From IMG/VR virus record IMGVR_UViG_2061766007_004155: DNA of 20,000 nt; one strand, 5' to 3'. The notes below the pieces were generated by a model, which was not told where the DNA came from, made no database searches, and saw only the letters and a list, made by a program, of their open reading frames with translations. Source of the DNA: an uncultured virus (IMG/VR IMGVR_UViG_2061766007_004155) (taxonomy: Duplodnaviria; Heunggongvirae; Uroviricota; Caudoviricetes). Below, piece after piece: positions 3,535-18,229 of this stretch (position 1 is the first letter of the stretch; each line of letters starts with the position of its first letter). The position numbers and the translations under genes were made by a program.

Positions 3535-3717
3535 TTAAGCCTCCGACTTCAACCATTCTAACCAAGCAAGATAGCATTTGCTTCTGTTTCCCTGACATTG
3601 CTCTGCGTTAATAGGGCATTGCCTGTCAATAGGGCAATCTGAGCAATAAGCTATATGGCTAATCCACTTTGCCAACTTCTTATCCTGCTTTGCTCTGATT
3701 TTATCCCCATTTTTCAT
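3535..3717 (-). CDS. Small Cys-rich phage protein (MxNGDKIR...WLEWLKSE type)
   Basis: AGGAG RBS; CxxC..C..C..C. Confidence 0.7.
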   Translation of the reverse strand: MKNGDKIRAKQDKKLAKWISHIAYCSDCPIDRQCPINAEQCQGNRSKCYLAWLEWLKSEA

Positions 3718-4376
3718 ATGTTTCTCCTAACTGATGTAGTAAATGCCTTTTCAACTGACCATCCACGCAAATAAAGCCTGTCATATAGCGTGTGATAGTT
3801 GATGCCAAGGCGGTCAGCCCAATAGGATAACTGCATAGTTTCGCCGTTGTATGTCAGCCATAGCGTTCGTGCTTGGTTATTGTTCTGCTCTCTGACGCTT
3901 ACCCAACGGCAGTTATTGGGGGAATAACCCTTACTCACATCAATGCGGTCTATTGTCAAATCGTCTGCGTACCCATGAGATAACGCCCATTCTTTGAACG
4001 GTTCAAAGTGTTTCCAATCCTCACAGACGGCAATCCCTTTCGCGCCGTATCTTTCCCACGATGTATCATTAGGGTTTGTACATCTTTGAATGATTCCAGC
4101 CCATTCCCGATAGAGCCTTGTGCCAACACCACCGTGAATGGTATTTCTTTCTGCACTCCGTTTTGCGGAACAGCATGAACAACGCTTTGTGTTGCCACTT
4201 GTAACGGAATTCTTACGAAGCACAACCTCGTTTCCGCAATCACATCTAAACAACCAATAGTGTTGACCACCCTTAACTCGGTTATCACGATGGTCAAATC
4301 TGATAGCCGTTAGTTCTCCAAACTTTTGCTGTGTAATATCCCTTGTCTTATTTGGTTGGAAACAAGTCCTACCCAT
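3714..4376 (-). CDS. HNH-type (beta-beta-alpha-Me) homing endonuclease
   Basis: KFGELT..WLFRCDCGN..CSC; RC..YGAKGIAVCEDW; LTIDRIDVSKGYSPNNCRW..EQNNN; C-terminal HTH-like segment. Start MGRT at 4376 after GGAGG. Confidence 0.9.
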   Translation of the reverse strand: MGRTCFQPNKTRDITQQKFGELTAIRFDHRDNRVKGGQHYWLFRCDCGNEVVLRKNSVTSGNTKRCSCCSAKRSAERNTIHGGVGTRLYREWAGIIQRCTNPNDTSWERYGAKGIAVCEDWKHFEPFKEWALSHGYADDLTIDRIDVSKGYSPNNCRWVSVREQNNNQARTLWLTYNGETMQLSYWADRLGINYHTLYDRLYLRGWSVEKAFTTSVRRNI

Positions 4377-4671
4377 CTTTACCCTCCACTTCCGCCGGAT
4401 ACAGCGCATCCAACTTTTCCATATCTGTCTCGACAAACAAAACATCCATCTGTGTTGCGTCTTGATTATAAACAGCCAATCCGTGATTTAATCCCCTTGC
4501 TGTGCTACCTGTAATCTCCCTGTAGTCAGAACGTTGAATCTTGTCAATCACTTCGTCTCTGTCCCAATCCGCCCCAACCAATGCAAGCGGAGAACTGACG
4601 AATGTGTGGACTTGTTCTCCTTCTGGAAGCAGTTCAGTTGCTTGCTGTGTTGTAAGAAATATTCTGCTCAT
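4369..4671 (-). CDS. Hypothetical protein
   Basis: ORF with coupled junctions on both sides. Confidence 0.7.
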   Translation of the reverse strand: MSRIFLTTQQATELLPEGEQVHTFVSSPLALVGADWDRDEVIDKIQRSDYREITGSTARGLNHGLAVYNQDATQMDVLFVETDMEKLDALYPAEVEGKDG

Positions 4672-6955: not shown

Positions 6956-7065
6956 TACTCACCATCCTCATCGTCATCGGAAGAATATGATTCTTCGCAT
7001 TCACTCTCATAGAAATCGTGGTTGGCATACCACTCTCCAAGGTCTTCACCATAAGTAAATTCCAT
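6955..7065 (-). CDS. 36-aa highly acidic peptide (not in ORF track)
   Basis: MEFTYGEDLGEWYANHDFYESECEESYSSDDDEDGE; overlaps both neighbours by 1 nt. Confidence 0.6.
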   Translation of the reverse strand: MEFTYGEDLGEWYANHDFYESECEESYSSDDDEDGE

Positions 7066-7280
7066 CACCAACCATCCTTCCACCTGCACCCATCGCAAGC
7101 ACCCTCGTGCTTTTTCTCGTACTCACCGCATCTCCAACACAGTTCGTTCTTGCAGTCTTTCAAATCAATCAGAGCAGTATCTACTTTCTGTAGAATGATT
7201 TGCAGTTCGGAATCATCTGCTATAACTTTCATCATTGACCGGACATTCTTAATCAATTCACACAGTTCGTCGTACTTCAT
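7065..7280 (-). CDS. Cys-rich phage protein (NELCxxCG...GACDGCRW)
   Basis: Coupled ORF; Cys motif. Confidence 0.75.
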   Translation of the reverse strand: MKYDELCELIKNVRSMMKVIADDSELQIILQKVDTALIDLKDCKNELCWRCGEYEKKHEGACDGCRWKDGW

Positions 7281-7921
7281 CACTCACCATCCTTCCGCAT
7301 GTCAGCACCGTGGGATTGCCTCCAACCTTTTGTTCTCAATCTTACAGGGCGATTAATGGCATCTTCTACAGACCACCCTGTGTTAAGCCGTTCTTTAAGT
7401 GTTGTTTTGCTGATGCCAATTTTTTCGGCAAGTTGGGTAAGCGTGTATTTATTCCCTTGGTACTCAATTATCCTGTTATTTCTCCTATTGTTCTGTTGTT
7501 CTTTCATGGTAACCCATCTGCAATTATTAGGGGAATAGCCTTTTTCGTTGTTTATCCTGTCAATGGAAAGACCGTCATTATATCCATGCTGAAATGCCCA
7601 TTTTGCAAATGGCAAATATGAATCCCATTCTTTGCAAATAGTTATTCCTCTCCCACCATATTCATTAAAATGTGGATGCTTATCGTATTCACATCTTGCA
7701 TGAATTGATTCCCATATTTTTCGGAGGCGATGATTGTTGTATAGTTCGCTTTCTGATATTCCTTTGATTACTTCATATCCTTTGCATTTTGTTTTACTGC
7801 GGTAACAACTTGCAATTGTGCATTGCACAACTCCAAGATATTCGCAAGCGTTTTTTTCTGATTGGAATACAAGATATTCGTCCCCTTTTTTTAGGATATA
7901 TGGTGATGTTTTATGTTCCAT
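7280..7921 (-). CDS. HNH-type homing endonuclease with NUMOD1-like N-terminal HTH
   Basis: Start MEHK after GGAGGAG; FQSEKNACEYLGV; RC..YGGRGITICKEW; LSIDRINNEKGYSPNNCRW..EQQNNRR. Confidence 0.9.
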   Translation of the reverse strand: MEHKTSPYILKKGDEYLVFQSEKNACEYLGVVQCTIASCYRSKTKCKGYEVIKGISESELYNNHRLRKIWESIHARCEYDKHPHFNEYGGRGITICKEWDSYLPFAKWAFQHGYNDGLSIDRINNEKGYSPNNCRWVTMKEQQNNRRNNRIIEYQGNKYTLTQLAEKIGISKTTLKERLNTGWSVEDAINRPVRLRTKGWRQSHGADMRKDGE

Positions 7922-8234
7922 GCTCTCCTCCGTTGTAACTGCCGCAGTTGGGGCAGAAGTTGTGAAGTGGTTGAACATGGATTTTTGTGAATACATACCC
8001 ACATTCAGAACATTTGTAACGGAAGATTTCAAGACCGTTTAATAATTCAATTCTGTCACCACCGTTGTCTTCCCACTTTCCATGCCTGACTTCCGCAACA
8101 TCTGCGGATGGGATGGAATCAATGGCCCGAGCCGCATCCCCACGAATGACCCAACAGTAACCGTCACCGTCTACCTTTGGCACAAGTTTTAGGATGGCGT
8201 TAAATGCCGCTTCTCTTTCGATGCAATCAGCCAT
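7911..8234 (-). CDS. Phage zinc-ribbon protein (ADVAEVRHGKW...CSECG...FCPNCG)
   Basis: Well-known Firmicutes phage module; AAGGAGG RBS. Confidence 0.85.
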   Translation of the reverse strand: MADCIEREAAFNAILKLVPKVDGDGYCWVIRGDAARAIDSIPSADVAEVRHGKWEDNGGDRIELLNGLEIFRYKCSECGYVFTKIHVQPLHNFCPNCGSYNGGEHGT

Positions 8235-8781
8235 CTGTTTCCTCCTTTGGCGGTTCGGGGAAATACGGAACGCACTTCCATGTCACACCGTTAATAGCGT
8301 TCTGCATTGTTTTCTTCGATACTCCGTATCTATCAGCAAGTTCTTGAAACGATGTTCCCTTATAGGCGCGTTCCCATCTCGCGTCTTTGACAGTTTTCTT
8401 CGTCAGCTTTGATGTTATTTGTTCTTCTCCAACCTTTACAACATTGCGCCCTTTGCGTTCTCTGTCGGCTACGTTGTCTGCTCTCGTTCCCAAAAACAGA
8501 TGCTCCGGGTTTATACAGGATGGATTATCGCATTTGTGGCACACTTCAAACCCGTCCGGGATTTCACCATTCCATGTGATGTATGCCAATCTATGCGCTC
8601 TTTCAGAACGACGCGTTCCGTCTGTTCGGCTACCAACTATTGTGTGTCCGTAGCCGCCTCTTTTGCATCCAGTCCACTCCCAACACCCAGATACGGGATT
8701 GACTTTCATGTTTGCTTTAAGACGTTCTTCAATTGGCATGGTCGGCATACCGCGTTTTCTTGCGCTATAATCAGGTTTCAT
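8227..8781 (-). CDS. HNH endonuclease (HNH_3 type) with C-terminal HTH
   Basis: GCWEWTG..GYG..RAHRLAY..VCHKCDNPSCINPEHLFLGTRADNVAD; SFQELADRYGVS. Confidence 0.92.
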   Translation of the reverse strand: MKPDYSARKRGMPTMPIEERLKANMKVNPVSGCWEWTGCKRGGYGHTIVGSRTDGTRRSERAHRLAYITWNGEIPDGFEVCHKCDNPSCINPEHLFLGTRADNVADRERKGRNVVKVGEEQITSKLTKKTVKDARWERAYKGTSFQELADRYGVSKKTMQNAINGVTWKCVPYFPEPPKEETDG

Positions 8782-9432: not shown

Positions 9433-9897
9433 TCAGCCAAGCCTCCTCCGGCAGAACTCGGCAATCATAAGCGCATCGGCAATTCCGTCATCATCCGTTC
9501 TGCATTTCGGAGTACGTTTCAGAGATACATCAGGGAAGAGTTCTTTTGCGACCTGAATAGTACGGGCTTTCTTCTCCGCTTTTGAATAATCTTTAGAAAG
9601 GTTTAGGCTAAATGTGCGCTTCCAAGTTTGTGAAGGAATCAATTGAACAGGGATTTTGAATGCGTAACACATTCCCCTTACAAATCCCCAGTTCGTTCCG
9701 AAGTTGAATGTTGACGAGATACCTTGCCCAGGCATTGAACCAACTTTTTCGATTGCCATAACACAATCGTCTTTAGACCATCTATCTAAAGCTTCACGGT
9801 AATTTTCTTCATCGAATGGTATAATTTCCACCCCGTCATCAGAGATGCACACAAGCGCTCCTGAAGCCCCTGGGTCACAGCCAATGTATCTTTTCAA
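9433..9897 (-). CDS. RuvC-like Holliday junction resolvase (phage type)
   Basis: YIGCDPG (Asp), AIEKV (Glu), STFNFG, QTWK, DGIADALMIA (Asp); TTG start overlapping the recombinase stop. Confidence 0.88.
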   Translation of the reverse strand: MKRYIGCDPGASGALVCISDDGVEIIPFDEENYREALDRWSKDDCVMAIEKVGSMPGQGISSTFNFGTNWGFVRGMCYAFKIPVQLIPSQTWKRTFSLNLSKDYSKAEKKARTIQVAKELFPDVSLKRTPKCRTDDDGIADALMIAEFCRRRLG

Positions 9898-10853
9898 GAT
9901 GCAATACCTTCTTTCTTGTAAATACTCGAAACAGTTTTTGCAAAGTTGCTTGCAGTTAATTCGGGGTCAAGGTCTTTAGCGTAAATGGCAGTGGTTTGCA
10001 GACGGCTATGACCAAGCATGTTGCTAATAGCTTCAATGGACGTTCCGCCTGTGAGCGACACAGAAGCAAAAGCATGACGAAGAGCATGAGTTCTTGATGC
10101 TTTCTCTTCGCCAAGCACACCGCTTACATAACTGTATACTTTTTCAGAGAGTTCAGTTCTTTCAAATCCACGCCACTCACCGCCGTTTGTTACGACACCG
10201 AACAGCAGATCATCACTTGTGAGAAGATATGGTCTTAATCCGCTATTAAGATAATCGTTAACAGCAGACTGCGCTTCCTCTGTAAACGGTACATATCTTG
10301 GCTTACCACCCTTTGCAACCTCGCAATAAATCGTTCCTGTTTCAAAGTTCAGATTCCTGAGTTTAAGATTCCTCAGTTCTATGTTACGCATACCAGATGT
10401 GAGGAACACAGTTACGATTGCCTTTTCCCTTACAAACGTTCTCGGTGTCCTGCGCCCTTCGGTTGTGTACCTCTCCGCACTCATAAGAGCCATTGCGTCC
10501 TGCGCATCAAGGACGTGATCGTATTCCTTGTTCTTCTCTTTGCTAATCTGCTTCTTCGGCGGGAACATCTTCTCCACAACAAAAGGAGCGGAGTAAATGC
10601 AAGTATCTACACCGAAATCTGACAGGTATTTAAGGATTCTCAGGTACATATCGAGAGTGCGGAATGAAACATTAAGGCTCTCTTTCCACTTGAGAGTAGC
10701 AATTGCGCTTGCATCTTCATACCCGTTATTCTCCAAGAACTCACGGTAAAACCTGAAGACGTTTGCGTAAGTTTCCAATGTGGCTTTTGTGCATTCATTT
10801 GTACGGCAGTTTGACATAAACATATCAACTGTTGTTTTGTAGTTTTCTAACAT
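9894..10853 (-). CDS. Tyrosine recombinase/integrase (XerC/D-like)
   Basis: Catalytic set intact: SGMRNIEL (R), AKGGK (K), HALRH, LGH, TTAIY; N-terminal SAM-like domain. Confidence 0.93.
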   Translation of the reverse strand: MLENYKTTVDMFMSNCRTNECTKATLETYANVFRFYREFLENNGYEDASAIATLKWKESLNVSFRTLDMYLRILKYLSDFGVDTCIYSAPFVVEKMFPPKKQISKEKNKEYDHVLDAQDAMALMSAERYTTEGRRTPRTFVREKAIVTVFLTSGMRNIELRNLKLRNLNFETGTIYCEVAKGGKPRYVPFTEEAQSAVNDYLNSGLRPYLLTSDDLLFGVVTNGGEWRGFERTELSEKVYSYVSGVLGEEKASRTHALRHAFASVSLTGGTSIEAISNMLGHSRLQTTAIYAKDLDPELTASNFAKTVSSIYKKEGIAS

Positions 10854-12565: not shown

Positions 12566-12653
12566 CGCCTATTAATATATTTATATTGCAGTATGATTAT
12601 ATGAATGTGCGCAATACATAAATATGGATTAACTGTTATATAAATCATGGCAC

Positions 12654-12686
12654 AAAAATAGAGACTGCCTTTTCAGACAGCCTCTA
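12654..12686 (-). terminator. Intrinsic terminator
   Basis: Minus strand TAGAGGCTGTCT-GAAA-AGGCAGTCTCTA then TTTTT. The two G-U pairs only form on this strand. Confidence 0.85.
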
Positions 12687-12702
12687 CAATTTTTTTAGCA
12701 TA

Positions 12703-12921
12703 TTAAAGGTCAAGTGGTATTGCGTATCTTGGGTTTTCTTCATTCCACTTCTCGCGGTTTTTAGTTAGCGTATCAACCCATTCAAAGCTTTCTATTTTTG
12801 ATCCGAACGGGAGCATATCTTTCAAAACCTTTTTCGGATTCTCACCCTCTTCAGCATAAGTTTTGATGGTGTCCTCTGTTCCATCGTTATGTTTGATTTT
12901 CGCAACAAGCAGTTTAGTCAT
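12703..12921 (-). CDS. Hypothetical protein
   Basis: AAGGAG RBS; start at 12921 or 12927. Confidence 0.7.
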   Translation of the reverse strand: MTKLLVAKIKHNDGTEDTIKTYAEEGENPKKVLKDMLPFGSKIESFEWVDTLTKNREKWNEENPRYAIPLDL

Positions 12922-13435
12922 TATCATATTCTCCTTCAGAATTTAATCCAAATTTTTTTCTTTGTTCTTCTAACTCCGCAGCAGTCATTTCCCGATGCTC
13001 AGACCACAGGTTTTTAAAAATGAAAACGATTCTCGCATCTAAATCTCCACACGGAACTACTGACATTTCATCGGAAAGCTCTACAATCCTGCGGAAAGAG
13101 CAATAAGCAGTCCCTTTGAAAAACGCCAATCCATTATGAATTGTGATTGCAACAAAAGCTTCCCTGAGTTTCGGATTCGGCTCTTCAAACTTTTCGATTT
13201 CCACATCTTCTGTCGTGCCGATTACGTCCAGACATTTATTGACAGCTTCAAGTTTTAATATTACTTCTTCATTGACTACAGTTCCATAAAACCTGTCAAT
13301 ATCACGTTCATTGAAAAGCGCAAAAATATCACCGTCCACTTCTTCGATTCTTTTCTGAATCTGCAGATAATCTTGCATGTTTTCCATAACAGCGCCTGTC
13401 ATTTCCTCATTGATTTTATAGTCTATCAAAATCAC
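12914..13435 (-). CDS. Acidic hypothetical protein
   Basis: 173-aa ORF, GTG start. Confidence 0.75.
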   Translation of the reverse strand: MILIDYKINEEMTGAVMENMQDYLQIQKRIEEVDGDIFALFNERDIDRFYGTVVNEEVILKLEAVNKCLDVIGTTEDVEIEKFEEPNPKLREAFVAITIHNGLAFFKGTAYCSFRRIVELSDEMSVVPCGDLDARIVFIFKNLWSEHREMTAAELEEQRKKFGLNSEGEYDND

Positions 13436-13458
13436 CCCCTAATTGTTTCATAATATAT

Positions 13459-13485
13459 TACACAGATTTGCGTGGATGCGCAATA
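13459..13485 (-). promoter_or_regulatory. Putative sigma70-type promoter (TTGCGC-N17-TAATAT)
   Basis: Intergenic; 17-nt spacer; shares TATTGCGCA with the 12608-12616 intergenic site. Confidence 0.35.
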
Positions 13486-14187
13486 TTAAATTCCGTATTG
13501 CTCTCTGAAATCTTTCCCCGTCATTTCATACAGCCTTTCCAACACTTCCCGTATTGATTTTCTGCCAAGATTTCTAACGCTTAACAGTTTTAATTCTTTG
13601 CCATCATTTTCGCAATAGTTTATTAAATCCAAAATTGTATTTATTTTTGCACGTCTCAAACAATTAAAAGAGCGGACAGATAAATCCATTGCCTCGATAG
13701 ACATATTGTTGCAGAAAGCTTCTTTCACTTCTTCTAAAGGACTTTCAATTGTGATGTGTAACGCATCAAACTTCGGCTTGTACTTCTCCAACATTTCATT
13801 CAGTTTTTTCTCACGTTCCCCTATGTTTTTTTCTCGTTCATTCAACTCCTCTTCTTTTGCTTTCAGCTTTTTCAACTCTGCACCGCCAAAATATCCATGC
13901 ATAATAAAGTTTTGTCTTGCCGGATGACGGAGTTTTCGCAATGCTTTAGCCTCTATTTGCCTAATGCGCTCACGGGTTACATTGAAATCCTTCCCGACTT
14001 CTTCAAACGTTTTAAAATCTTGAAACCGTTTTTCCAACACTTTCTGCTCACGATCAGATAATGTTAGCAAAGCATGTTCCAATCCTGCAATGTGGTCTTC
14101 ATCATCAACCCACACAATTTCATCACAGAATATAGCGTCAATTAGATTGAACGGATACCCAACATTATCATAAGTTATTGCTGACAT
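13486..14187 (-). CDS. Sigma-70 region 4 HTH fused via a coiled coil to an RNA polymerase alpha C-terminal domain
   Basis: [43 protein letters not shown] (sigmaA r4.2). Heptad-like [63 protein letters not shown] (alphaCTD). Confidence 0.9.
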
Positions 14188-14201
14188 ATATCATACCTCC
14201 T

Positions 14202-14576
14202 TTAACAATCTACAGCGATGCTGTGATACACATAGAATCTTCCACGTCTTTTAAAAATCTTATGCCCTATTGTGAAATGCTGTCCTGTGCAATCGTACAT
14301 TGACGGCATATATTCCATACGTTCAAACTCATCAAAGTATTCCTCTGCATCTTCATCACTCTTCAGAAATTCTGGAAGACGTACAAGCATAACGTAATAA
14401 CCATAGTTGTCTTCATAGATGCATCTGCGCTCCTCATTACTAGGCTTATTCAGATACTGTCTCAAATTTCGTTTAAGTTCTTCAATTCTTTCAGGCTTAG
14501 CATGATGCATAAAATCCTCATCACGGAGAATCGAATATGCAATTTTGCAATCAATAGGGGAAGTAATGTTAAACAT
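14202..14576 (-). CDS. Hypothetical protein (YDCTGQ.FT motif)
   Basis: GGAGG RBS; 124-aa ORF. Confidence 0.75.
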   Translation of the reverse strand: MFNITSPIDCKIAYSILRDEDFMHHAKPERIEELKRNLRQYLNKPSNEERRCIYEDNYGYYVMLVRLPEFLKSDEDAEEYFDEFERMEYMPSMYDCTGQHFTIGHKIFKRRGRFYVYHSIAVDC

Positions 14577-14610
14577 TTATGCCTCCATTTCTATATGTTT
14601 TTAATGTGCT

Positions 14611-14823
14611 TTACACTATTTCAAAATGAATATGTTCAAAAATCAGCGTCGGGCCATTGGTCGCTATCCCTGTCAGAATATTTGCGAATCCGCACCAGTC
14701 TCCGACATTGCATACTCTGCCATTAAATTCATGCTTTGAATGTGCCTTGCCGATATAATCCTTATGTTCTGCAACTAACTTCCGGAACTTTTTGCGCGGA
14801 ATCCTGATAATATCATTTGCCAT
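14611..14823 (-). CDS. Hypothetical protein
   Basis: MANDIIR start just after the upstream stop. Confidence 0.7.
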   Translation of the reverse strand: MANDIIRIPRKKFRKLVAEHKDYIGKAHSKHEFNGRVCNVGDWCGFANILTGIATNGPTLIFEHIHFEIV

Positions 14824-14824
14824 A

Positions 14825-15631
14825 TTAAAACCATCCTTTCTCGTCAGCAATTTTATAATACTTCTGCTTCGCTGCAATGTATGCTTCTCTCTGCATCTTG
14901 TTGAATCCAACGTCATTAAACATCTTTTCCAGATTGCTGTTATAATCTTCACTATACCAATTTACATTACCGAAAGCAGACAGAGTATCATAATCTCTTT
15001 GCCAGTTGATTCCGTATTCATGGTTGCACATTTCCGTGTAAATAGCATCCACCCAGTAATCAAAATTATCAAGTGTATCATTCTTCGCTGCCGTCAAAGC
15101 AACATGCAGTTTTACACACTTCTCCACAAATTCCCGGCTGTCATAATAAGCATAGCAAACAGGGTTAAAATACATCTTTTCAACTTTGCGCTTAAAAGCC
15201 TTTTCTTCCTTCTCAGACGGACTAATCATAAACGCCGATATATAATCTTCCCTCATTCCGTAATAGTTTTGCAGGAAGCTTCTTTTCGACTCATAATCAT
15301 CATAACTTTTGATTGGCTCAGACAATTCTTCCTCGGTGTAAAGCTTGTGATTCATGGTTTCAATATACCAATTTTTCAGGTCTTCACGGCTTCTCCCTTT
15401 GTGGTGAAGTTCATAGTCATTTGCGTAATGGATATGATGACCATTGCAGAAAACGCAAGCTGAATAGCCGAAATAGCCGGGAAAATCAATAAAGTAAATG
15501 TTATGGCCTTTAATAACCATGCTTTCTTCAGAAAGTTCTTTTGCCTGATCTTCAGATAAAGCTTCAATATCTTTGATCGTGTATTCAGACACAGTTTTGA
15601 TATCAGTATTTTCCATTTTCATATCCTCCAA
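14825..15631 (-). CDS. Hypothetical protein (Tyr-rich)
   Basis: 268-aa ORF; true start probably the ATG after GGAGG near 15622. Confidence 0.8.
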   Translation of the reverse strand: MEDMKMENTDIKTVSEYTIKDIEALSEDQAKELSEESMVIKGHNIYFIDFPGYFGYSACVFCNGHHIHYANDYELHHKGRSREDLKNWYIETMNHKLYTEEELSEPIKSYDDYESKRSFLQNYYGMREDYISAFMISPSEKEEKAFKRKVEKMYFNPVCYAYYDSREFVEKCVKLHVALTAAKNDTLDNFDYWVDAIYTEMCNHEYGINWQRDYDTLSAFGNVNWYSEDYNSNLEKMFNDVGFNKMQREAYIAAKQKYYKIADEKGWF

Positions 15632-17509: not shown

Positions 17510-17650
17510 TGATTATCCCTCCACTACTCTATAAGAATTATGGCTTNNNNNNNNNNNNNNNNNNNNNNNNNNNNNNNNNNNNNNNNNNNNNNGCTTTTTC
17601 AGAAAAGCATAACCACTTGAAAGAATTGTATCTAACATTTCATGCCTCCA

Positions 17651-18019: not shown

Positions 18020-18229
18020 TTAGTTAATAGGGAAGTGGCTGTCTATCAGATTATAAATATAATTGAAAGCCGTCTCTGTTAGTAATTCACATAAACGGCT
18101 GCCATCATTTTTCATGATTATATTCTTCAGTTTTTCCACAGTTTCCGGCGTGATGTTTTTATCCATAATGTCTAGACAGCTTTCCAAGTCTTCATTATCT
18201 AATGTGTAAAGAAAAAATGGTTTATTCAT
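18020..18229 (-). CDS. Hypothetical protein
   Basis: GAGGAG RBS; 69 aa. Confidence 0.65.
   Translation of the reverse strand: MNKPFFLYTLDNEDLESCLDIMDKNITPETVEKLKNIIMKNDGSRLCELLTETAFNYIYNLIDSHFPIN

Follow-up and report, generated by a model that had tools for sequence, protein, structure and literature searches.

A 20,000-nucleotide stretch of DNA from an uncultured virus of the Caudoviricetes (IMG/VR record IMGVR_UViG_2061766007_004155), called the window here, contains a gene on its minus strand (positions 13486-14187) whose product joins in one chain a full region 4 of a sigma-70 factor (sigma-4) and a full alpha-subunit C-terminal domain (alpha-CTD) of RNA polymerase (RNAP), with a 54-residue helix between them. 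The gene belongs to an undescribed family that is uncharacterised, phage-borne and large. To our knowledge, sigma region 4 and the alpha-CTD have not been described as a free-standing pair, and a search of open-access PMC and bioRxiv full text returned no description of the fusion. The reading that we prefer, which is plausible but falls short of probable, is that the protein is an RNAP-independent, probably dimeric binder of -35-like and A/T-rich DNA that would alter promoter use during infection, most likely by promoter occlusion.

The domain assignments come from Pfam. The protein of 233 amino acids (aa) matches Sigma70_r4 over the whole profile (positions 1-50 of 50; E 3.4e-17, 62.1 bits against a cut-off of 24.1) and RNA_pol_A_CTD over positions 10-66 of 67 (E 1.6e-17, 63.4 bits against 23.8), and both domains thus lie about 40 bits over their cut-offs. 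The original prediction, made from the letters and translated open reading frames (ORFs) of the window, had described a sigma-4 with an intact recognition helix and an alpha-CTD with the motifs LSVRSFNCL and NLGRKS. Both were borne out: the profile search that it proposed found the two domains at E of about 1e-17, the quoted helix lies at aa 70-89, the two motifs lie at aa 169-177 and 206-211, and Pfam and Foldseek agree on the alpha-CTD. The clade of the window protein carries a 5-residue insertion in this domain at aa 196-200.

Sigma region 2 and the alpha N-terminal domain (NTD) were said to be missing, and so they are. The Sigma70_r2, Sigma70_r3 and alpha-NTD families gave zero Pfam matches at E<=1 in the fusion protein. 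Among the NCBIfam models, those for RpoD match only over their last ~60 positions (73.6 bits against a cut-off of 555) and those for rpoA only at positions 205-311 (59.9 bits against 227.8). Lacking regions 1-3, the protein cannot be a sigma factor; lacking the alpha NTD, it is not an alpha subunit and cannot join RNAP. A GerE-type (LuxR/CsgD) regulator was also considered and rejected. No GerE family matched the fusion protein at E<=1 in Pfam, and the JGI label 'CsgD family' on the relatives P0035, P0073, P0090 and P0105 is unsupported for the window protein.

An AlphaFold2 model built from an 89-sequence alignment (mean predicted local distance difference test, pLDDT, 87.7; predicted template modelling score, pTM, 0.55) places a short helix at 13-20, sigma-4 at 30-86, a single long helix at 89-142 and the alpha-CTD at 151-223. 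Structure prediction had been suggested earlier, and in this single-chain model both modules fold like solved sigma-4 and alpha-CTD structures, at a root-mean-square deviation (rmsd) of 1-2 A. Foldseek aligned the sigma-4 part with 4g6d_A (rmsd 2.0 over 59 columns) and 7mkj_L (1.0 over 64), and the alpha-CTD with 9dvt_A (1.7 over 63) and 1z3e_B (2.1 over 64). VIA-align gave Z scores of 8-9.5 and an rmsd of 1.1-2.2 A over 60-69 residues for the sigma-4 part, whose top sequence matches in the Protein Data Bank (PDB) are region 4 of SigA/RpoD. Also present among the PDB sequence matches of the fusion protein is 3n97_A, from a structure that we take to hold sigma-4 and alpha-CTD modules side by side on DNA. 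In BFVD, only single-domain matches were found.

In RNAP, sigma-4 binds the -35 element and the beta flap, and the alpha-CTD binds the adjacent UP element and activators. The residues that the family conserves were compared with those of both parent modules. Across the 89 aligned sequences (the window protein and 88 family members to which it is 30-86% identical), mean column identity is 30%. Invariant are L43, E47, E73, R76, Q77, R84 and K85 in sigma-4 and S170, R172, C176, N206, G208 and E214 in the alpha-CTD. When near-invariant positions are included, the recognition helix contributes E73, R74, R76, Q77, K81, R84 and K85, helix 4.1 contributes L43, R46, E47 and R54, and the two hairpin motifs contribute S170, V171, R172, N175 and C176, and R205, N206, L207, G208, R209, K210 and S211.

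The recognition helix matches that of primary sigma factors in every letter. In alignments to the E. coli chains, aa 72-91 correspond to sigma-70 584-603, in which R584, E585 and Q589 are presumably the residues that read the -35 hexamer. Compared with 78 SigA region-4 sequences, 74 members match SigA at almost all of its conserved positions in helices 4.1 and 4.2, among them R72 (77%), E73, R74, R76 and Q77; these members were chosen by a motif in aa 79-86, and those columns are conditioned accordingly. Departures from SigA are a 4.1-4.2 loop that is 4 residues shorter in 74 of the 74, relaxed E63, V64 and F68, and the tail past P89.

The alpha-CTD was compared between 30 RpoA sequences and 86 family members, the latter chosen by the motif SVRSxNC. 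S170, R172, N175, C176, N206, G208 and E214 are present in 100% of the members, and R205, L207, R209, K210 and S211 in 93-99%. We take R172, N175, C176, G208, K210 and S211 to be the alpha '265 determinant', which binds UP DNA. In contrast, the family is relaxed at many positions where RpoA is 80-100% conserved, namely K178, I182, V185, L188, E194, D195, M202, K203, L212, E213, V215, L222, G224 and F227; the K178 position is K in 100% of RpoA and R in 52% of the family. This pattern argues that selection guards the DNA contacts more than the protein-contact surfaces of the alpha-CTD. Since conservation is centred on DNA contacts, it speaks for DNA binding and against a role as a decoy.

Ahead of sigma-4 lies a short N-terminal motif that is a candidate cis mimic of the flap-tip helix of the RNAP beta subunit. 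Its family form is YPxNL(h)xx(h)(h) (YPFNLxxAIF), and all but a few members carry it. Among the 89 sequences, Y11 is kept in 91%, P12 in 98%, N14 in 92% and L15 in 96%, and positions 16, 19 and 20 are hydrophobic in 93-99%. In fusion proteins of up to 420 aa, the motif stands 50-100 residues ahead of the recognition helix in 133 of 146, and in 39 of these 133 an extra N-terminal domain comes before it. Helix 13-20 is modelled with a pLDDT of about 88-89. In addition, the fragment aa 1-95 folds as one unit (pTM 0.76; residues 11-30 at pLDDT 86-89), which fits a helix packed on sigma-4 in the model.

When a 14-position hidden Markov model of the motif was run unfiltered against five RpoB sequences (1,121-1,338 aa), the best match was LLRAIFGE/D in four of the five. 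This stretch is the beta flap-tip helix: an RpoB segment of 45 residues around it aligns with residues 876-920 of E. coli beta and with the beta portion of three sigma-4/flap-tip chimeras, 6ido_A, 3t72_o and 7kuf_B. Beta L901, I905 and F906 (and K900) contact sigma-4 or AsiA, according to PMC10216364 and PMC6755090; in the alignment they stand at motif positions L15, I19 and F20 (and N14). A PDB search with aa 1-36 alone gave nothing at E<=10. If the flap-tip mimic is right, sigma-4 would be self-sufficient and its groove already filled, which would argue against docking on RNAP.

The original prediction also called a coiled coil between the domains, of which part stands. The family shows a 3-4 hydrophobic repeat over aa 105-143 (positions 105, 108, (112), 115, 119, 122, 126, 129, 133, 136, 140 and 143), with Leu-type residues at every seventh position (108, 115, 122, 129, 136 and 143). 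In the clade of the window protein, exactly seven residues are inserted at 110-116. Distances between the sigma-4 and alpha-CTD motifs peak at 77 and 90 residues. The heptad pattern of the family looks zipper-like and suggests a dimer. Against a coiled coil throughout, the window protein has Glu at 112, 119 and 126, as taken up below. The long helix is possibly a dimerisation element or a rigid spacer.

The fusion protein may therewith be pictured as a free-standing copy of the part of RNAP that reads the upstream half of promoters, working without the polymerase. Both modules would bind DNA as they do in RNAP, sigma-4 on -35-like TTGACA and the alpha-CTD in the A/T-rich, UP-like minor groove. 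The N-terminal helix YPFNLxxAIF would copy the beta flap-tip helix and fill the hydrophobic groove of sigma-4 in cis, which would keep sigma-4 folded and competent for DNA without RNAP, with no docking on the RNAP flap. Two chains are probably paired by the long helix, which would give two heads of each kind, sigma-4 and alpha-CTD; the helix may instead serve as a rigid spacer. Made from the phage operon, the protein would occupy -35/UP-type DNA and shift which promoters the host polymerase uses. The likeliest effect would be that promoters dependent on -35 and UP contacts are blocked and others are spared. Of these steps, the least certain is whether the effect is repression or activation.

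Several points weigh against this proposal. Every functional step in it is one that we infer. The match of the motif to RpoB has an E-value of 0.6-1.1, which is not significant alone, and the four RpoB matches are homologous and count as one observation. Docking of helix 13-20 in the sigma-4 groove is itself a prediction. The flap-binding positions of sigma-4 are also core residues, so that conservation cannot separate a cis mimic from contact with the real flap. Dimerisation is uncertain, since Glu at 112, 119 and 126 falls inside an E/K-rich stretch, and instead of forming a zipper the helix could in part be single and charged. In the window, TTGACA is neither enriched nor depleted (14 occurrences against 17.3 +/- 4.1 expected), and no convincing repeated regulatory motif, hence no target site, was found. 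Lastly, several temperate relatives (L163 and L087) carry the gene just before packaging genes. Late-gene activators usually sit just before packaging genes, and this position favours activation over shut-off.

That position is the starting point for the reading of the protein as an activator of phage middle or late genes, which we regard as rather unlikely, though the most serious of the alternatives to occlusion. Here the protein would bind a -35-like/A-T-rich site upstream of weak phage promoters and bring in host RNAP by way of the natural contacts of sigma-4 and the alpha-CTD, serving as an additional alpha-CTD or sigma-4 partner that is anchored by sequence. In some relatives the gene lies at the distal end of a replication/recombination module and shortly before packaging genes, the order being fusion gene, HNH, terS, terL and portal in L163, with terL 3-3.5 kb downstream of the fusion gene in L087 and L088. 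The window gene is the third-last of its operon, which a strong terminator closes, and the unit that follows begins behind a TATAAT without a good -35. R91 occupies the place of sigma-70 R603 and is Arg in 73% of members; two acidic residues, E165 and D168, are retained in 64-73%. However, the acidic patch of the alpha-CTD and other surface residues conserved in RpoA are less conserved in the family, many relatives (L081, L082, L085, L091 and L092) carry the gene inside replication modules, far from late genes, and the search for a conserved upstream site in the window came out empty.

The original prediction had named occupancy of UP/-35 DNA, sigma appropriation and decoying as three possible mechanisms, of which occupancy fits best, the DNA contacts being most conserved, and the other two are disfavoured. 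An RNAP-bound factor, with sigma-4 on the beta flap or as the region-4 half of a split phage sigma and with the alpha-CTD added, would account for a sigma-4 that retains nearly all SigA-conserved residues, and phages are known to exploit the flap in this way, as with T4 AsiA/MotA (PMC6755090) and T4 gp33/gp55 (PMC7892883). It is nevertheless improbable, as the flap-tip look-alike, lying next to sigma-4 within one chain, would be a rival to the real flap. In addition, Sigma70_r2 (PF04542) was found in none of five phage records carrying the gene, four of them at least 90% complete, and in none of the 32 window ORFs, although a very divergent region 2 would escape Pfam. A decoy, in which the free modules soak up binders of sigma-4 and the alpha-CTD (Spx-like activators, anti-sigma factors or defence sensors) with no DNA binding, is slightly less probable again. 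Both modules are known protein-contact hubs, and the structural matches include alpha-CTD/Spx complexes (1z3e, 3gfk) and sigma-4 with WhiB or with phage ORF67 (4g6d). Yet conservation is concentrated on DNA-contact residues, and outside the DNA-binding hairpins the family is relaxed at positions that RpoA conserves at 90-100%, as well as at RpoA-conserved surface positions that include K178 and the 192-203 loop. Also, to judge from MAG (metagenome-assembled genome) labels, the family occurs in phages of very different hosts, through which a host-specific decoy is unlikely to have spread. A small chance is left to an architectural or replication-linked binder that would bridge or coat the A/T-rich DNA of the phage, at an origin or a packaging site or in the nucleoid, and play no direct part in promoter choice. 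Most relatives have the gene among replication and recombination genes, some related proteins are arrays of DNA-binding modules (P0135 and P0136, described below), and a parallel zipper, if there is one, would hold two kinds of DNA-binding head apart. Against it, a recognition helix identical to that of primary sigma factors suggests promoter-type reading of a hexamer.

The family is found in sequence collections of several kinds. In a search of 5.8 billion proteins, PF04545 and PF03118 were both present in 116 of the 120 best homologue clusters (P0023, P0026, P0041 and P0080 being without the full architecture); identity to the window protein ran from 99% down to ~33%, and the closest relatives sit on contigs of 74-88 kb. 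Among 1.84 billion representatives at 50% identity, a profile search yielded 2,141 proteins at E<=1e-30. Of the best 150, 103 matched in a single stretch and are ~170-390 aa long, and the other 47 are larger and matched in several stretches. At 233 aa and with sigma-4 ahead of the alpha-CTD, the window protein fits the family architecture, in which the two Pfam domains follow each other in this order in a protein of 200-330 aa. Locus scans, for which 80 loci per collection were retained, showed the full-length fusion in 13 of the 80 IMG/VR loci (L081-L093). The refuting case that the original prediction had named, homologues that are mostly chromosomal and of known function, is not what was seen: the homologues are phage-borne and uncharacterised. 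As for their distribution among mobile genetic elements, members lie in phage contigs, and 401 genomes sampled from the order of G007, with 7 candidates scored per genome, gave 0 matches at E<=1e-35 and hence no fused form.

None of the 158 matching PLSDB records and none of the 106 matching GenBank phage records covers at least 80% of the fusion protein. With a restrictive DNA pattern written for the fused form, 3 loci came up in species-representative genomes, all of them in MAGs, a count that is too low because the pattern is one Glu codon choice plus exact motifs. A protein-pattern scan of genome contigs was dominated by rpoD and was set aside, 0 of its 80 loci being fusions; L009, L062 and L064 passed the coverage filter and are ordinary SigA without an alpha-CTD. 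A scan of viral sequences with the single fusion protein gave no close relatives, and the metagenome loci L164-L166 had no ORF in common with the window by BLASTP. With no close relatives that have context, synteny in the phage's own lineage is drawn from metagenome contigs alone. An integrase is present in 3 of 5 whole viral records carrying the gene, so that some carriers are temperate.

Further DNA-binding domains occur in relatives, HTH_3 in 4 of 16 loci, HTH_17 in 2 of 16 and Spo0A_C in P0135, which fits a DNA-binding role. By Pfam scan, P0135 has 3 Spo0A_C domains, one sigma-4 and 3 alpha-CTDs, and P0136 has 11 alpha-CTDs. P0142 was grouped with these two as large array proteins of promoter-region DNA-binding modules. 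Separately, alpha-CTD matches in frames of 584-1,182 aa, too long for RpoA, were seen in 5 of 41 genomes sampled from the phylum of G007 (G414, G416, G417, G437 and G445).

The gene neighbourhood was looked at in 16 related loci, 13 viral and 3 from MAG assemblies. Replication, recombination or packaging genes surround the fusion gene in 12 of them, the neighbours being helicase/primase, RecE/RecT, SSB, replication initiators, DNA methyltransferases and RusA. In L083, the upstream replication genes encode a DnaD-like helicase loader and a DnaB-like helicase. No replication, recombination or packaging genes were seen near the fusion gene in L084, L089, L090 and L162; a regulator of excisionase type is present in L090, and a transcriptional regulator in L162. 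L084, a 95.6-kb viral record, also contains a 173-aa ORF (7056-7577), 2.2 kb upstream of its fusion gene, with a sigma-4 match only; this match is weak (E 3.6e-4) and under the Pfam cut-off.

Metagenomes provide a view of variation in the gene. Sequence words of a 4-kb stretch around it were found in animal-gut metagenome runs from 16 studies, including the possible source, with at least half of the words in 3 runs only and with 4 entries among the 16 studies at a share of 0.14 or less. The gene is retained at 85-99% identity in contigs of four other animal-gut runs (X3, X4, X5 and X20). Its surroundings are mosaic: 14187-14880 (skipped in the X20 contig), 14426-14598 (replaced in the X3 contig), 13405-13428 and 12667/12695-12737 are swapped for unrelated sequence, and the fusion gene stays. 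Six of the seven listed within-gene variants fall on third codon positions, a further 169 differences being unlisted, and the seventh is A90S, Ser being the commonest family residue there. The third-codon variants and the persistence of the gene while its flanks change indicate a real, selected gene. Contigs from RNA libraries of X20 span parts of the gene at ~85% identity; they do not show transcription, because DNA may be present and the contigs may be a relative's.

Table 1. Features of the fusion gene and its surroundings, in window coordinates.
Feature	Position	Strand	Basis	Remark
Fusion gene, 233 aa	13486..14187	minus	ORF, Pfam and AlphaFold2	sigma-4 / long helix / alpha-CTD
Shine-Dalgarno sequence AAAGGAGGT	14195..14203	minus	read from sequence	7 nt ahead of ATG; strong
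Candidate cis mimic of RNAP beta flap-tip helix, N-terminal motif, aa 11-20	14128..14157	minus	conservation, model	
Sigma-70 region 4 domain, aa 39-88	13924..14073	minus	Pfam PF04545	
-35 recognition helix, aa 70-89	13921-13980	minus		within/adjoining sigma-4 domain
Long helix, leucine-zipper-like linker, aa 89-143	13759..13923	minus	model helix 89-142, heptad pattern	
RNA polymerase alpha C-terminal domain, aa 159-220	13528..13713	minus	Pfam PF03118	
Intergenic TTGCGC-17 nt-TAATAT, TGTG in front	13436..13485	minus	read from sequence	inverted repeat TTGCG/CGCAA
Terminator-like hairpin	12658..12687	minus	consensus scan	13 pairs then T run

The window is phage-like, with every convincing gene on the minus strand and a GC content of 34-47%. 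Its genes encode three HNH endonucleases, a tyrosine recombinase, a Holliday-junction resolvase, a DUF551 protein, an LPD11 protein and a RecE-like fragment, and many small ORFs are without any family. No GenBank phage matches the window at the DNA level, and a transfer RNA scan of it found none. The fusion ORF reads from 14187 down to 13486 with an ATG start codon, and its Shine-Dalgarno sequence overlaps the stop codon of the upstream ORF 14202-14576. Downstream lies the orphan ORF 12914-13402, for which 3 relatives were found but neither a family nor an Atlas match. The hairpin at 12687-12658, 800 nt downstream of the fusion gene, ends the transcription unit that contains it; the gene had been placed near the end of an early block, and as regards position alone this agrees.

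The intergenic sequence directly after the fusion gene (13436-13485) is a possible promoter of the next ORF on its sequence, and is absent from the consensus-scan list. One arm of its inverted repeat differs at 13470 in the contig of run X3, which leaves a role for the repeat unproven. The sequence TATTGCGCA occurs in both non-coding stretches that come after the fusion gene's unit, at 13477-13485 and in the 12566-12702 gap; the first copy belongs to the inverted repeat and overlaps the -35-like position. A 24-nt repeat (83% identical) is present in two inter-ORF gaps, at 3607-3630 and 18023-18046. Its first copy reads ATTGACAGGCAATGCCCTATTAAC on the coding strand and includes TTGACA, with TGTCAG 26 nt further on; the repeat could be a regulatory site. 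Promoter-like sites in the window number 42, fewer than in shuffled sequences (55.4 +/- 8.1).

Elsewhere in the window, three HNH homing-type endonuclease genes (3714-4445, 7280-8032 and 8227-8781) lie within 5 kb, and two of them are mutually related, both matching phrog_3377 and phrog_374. At 9433-10853, the tyrosine recombinase (Phage_integrase, 319 aa) stands directly upstream of the Holliday-junction resolvase (phrog_1770). This pair, in the middle of a one-strand gene array, could serve lysogeny or the resolution of genome dimers. Runs of N occupy 214-233 (20 bases) and 17547-17592 (46 bases). The first breaks a class-V aminotransferase gene into ORFs 198-1061 and 1-210, with the Pfam match ending at 275 of 371, and the apparent split is therefore probably due to masking.

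Relative to published systems, the window gene would be a new variety of phage transcription control. Its sigma-4 has the fold, the identical recognition helix and the conserved residues of SigA/RpoD region 4; unlike SigA/RpoD, the fusion is without regions 1-3, has a shorter 4.1-4.2 loop and continues into a long helix where sigma ends. Similarly, its alpha-CTD shares the fold of RpoA (rmsd 1.7-2.2 A) with SVRSxNCL and RNLGxKS invariant or nearly so, and the two modules occur together, as at a promoter. Unlike RpoA, the fusion has no alpha NTD, its surface outside the hairpins is relaxed, and the modules are ~70 residues apart in one chain. Sigma-4/beta flap-tip chimeras have been engineered for crystallography (3T72, 7KUF/7KUG, 8CWR/8CWT, 8D5V and 6IDO). 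These also carry sigma-4 and an L-(L)-x-A-I-F helix in one chain, an arrangement that would make sigma-4 self-sufficient, whereas the helix of the fusion is natural, N-terminal and not C-terminal to sigma-4, similar at the level of a motif, and docked only by proposal.

Phage G1 gp67 (ORF67, 4G6D) binds domain 4 of S. aureus SigA and stops the alpha-CTD from using UP elements (PMC3694059). Like gp67, the fusion is a phage protein at the sigma-4/alpha-CTD/UP corner and would have promoter-selective effects; gp67 has an unrelated fold that binds the host sigma, whereas the fusion consists of host-type modules and would act on DNA. T4 AsiA grips the flap-tip residues L901, I905 and F906 (PMC6755090). 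T4 AsiA/MotA and gp33/gp55 are likewise phage strategies that take over the flap/sigma-4 position. However, those proteins bind RNAP, and the fusion has no RNAP anchor and has a flap-like helix of its own; it also has no region-2 partner in the 5 gene-carrying phage records. What appears to be new is the conservation of DNA contacts with a relaxed alpha-CTD surface, the flap-tip-like motif and the missing region-2 partner in those 5 records.

A stronger form of the occlusion reading, unlikely as matters stand though worth stating, is that this stand-alone upstream reading head, a self-folding sigma-4 with its own flap-tip copy and an alpha-CTD on one helical stalk, competes with the host polymerase for -35/UP DNA, silences the strongest host promoters (rRNA-type) and spares phage promoters that are independent of these contacts. 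If true, this would be promoter-selective shut-off of the host by DNA mimicry of the polymerase itself, and competition would do the work that T4 AsiA and phage G1 gp67 do through their binding to sigma. With members in the thousands, a family of phage proteins that joins both modules would constitute a new class of transcription regulator, especially with a built-in substitute for the flap helix. The family would also serve as a natural experiment in the reading of -35 and UP elements, and as a ready-made source of the soluble sigma-4 module that structural biologists formerly had to engineer. For gut Bacillota and other hosts, it would offer a directly testable means of controlling host transcription in a promoter-selective way.

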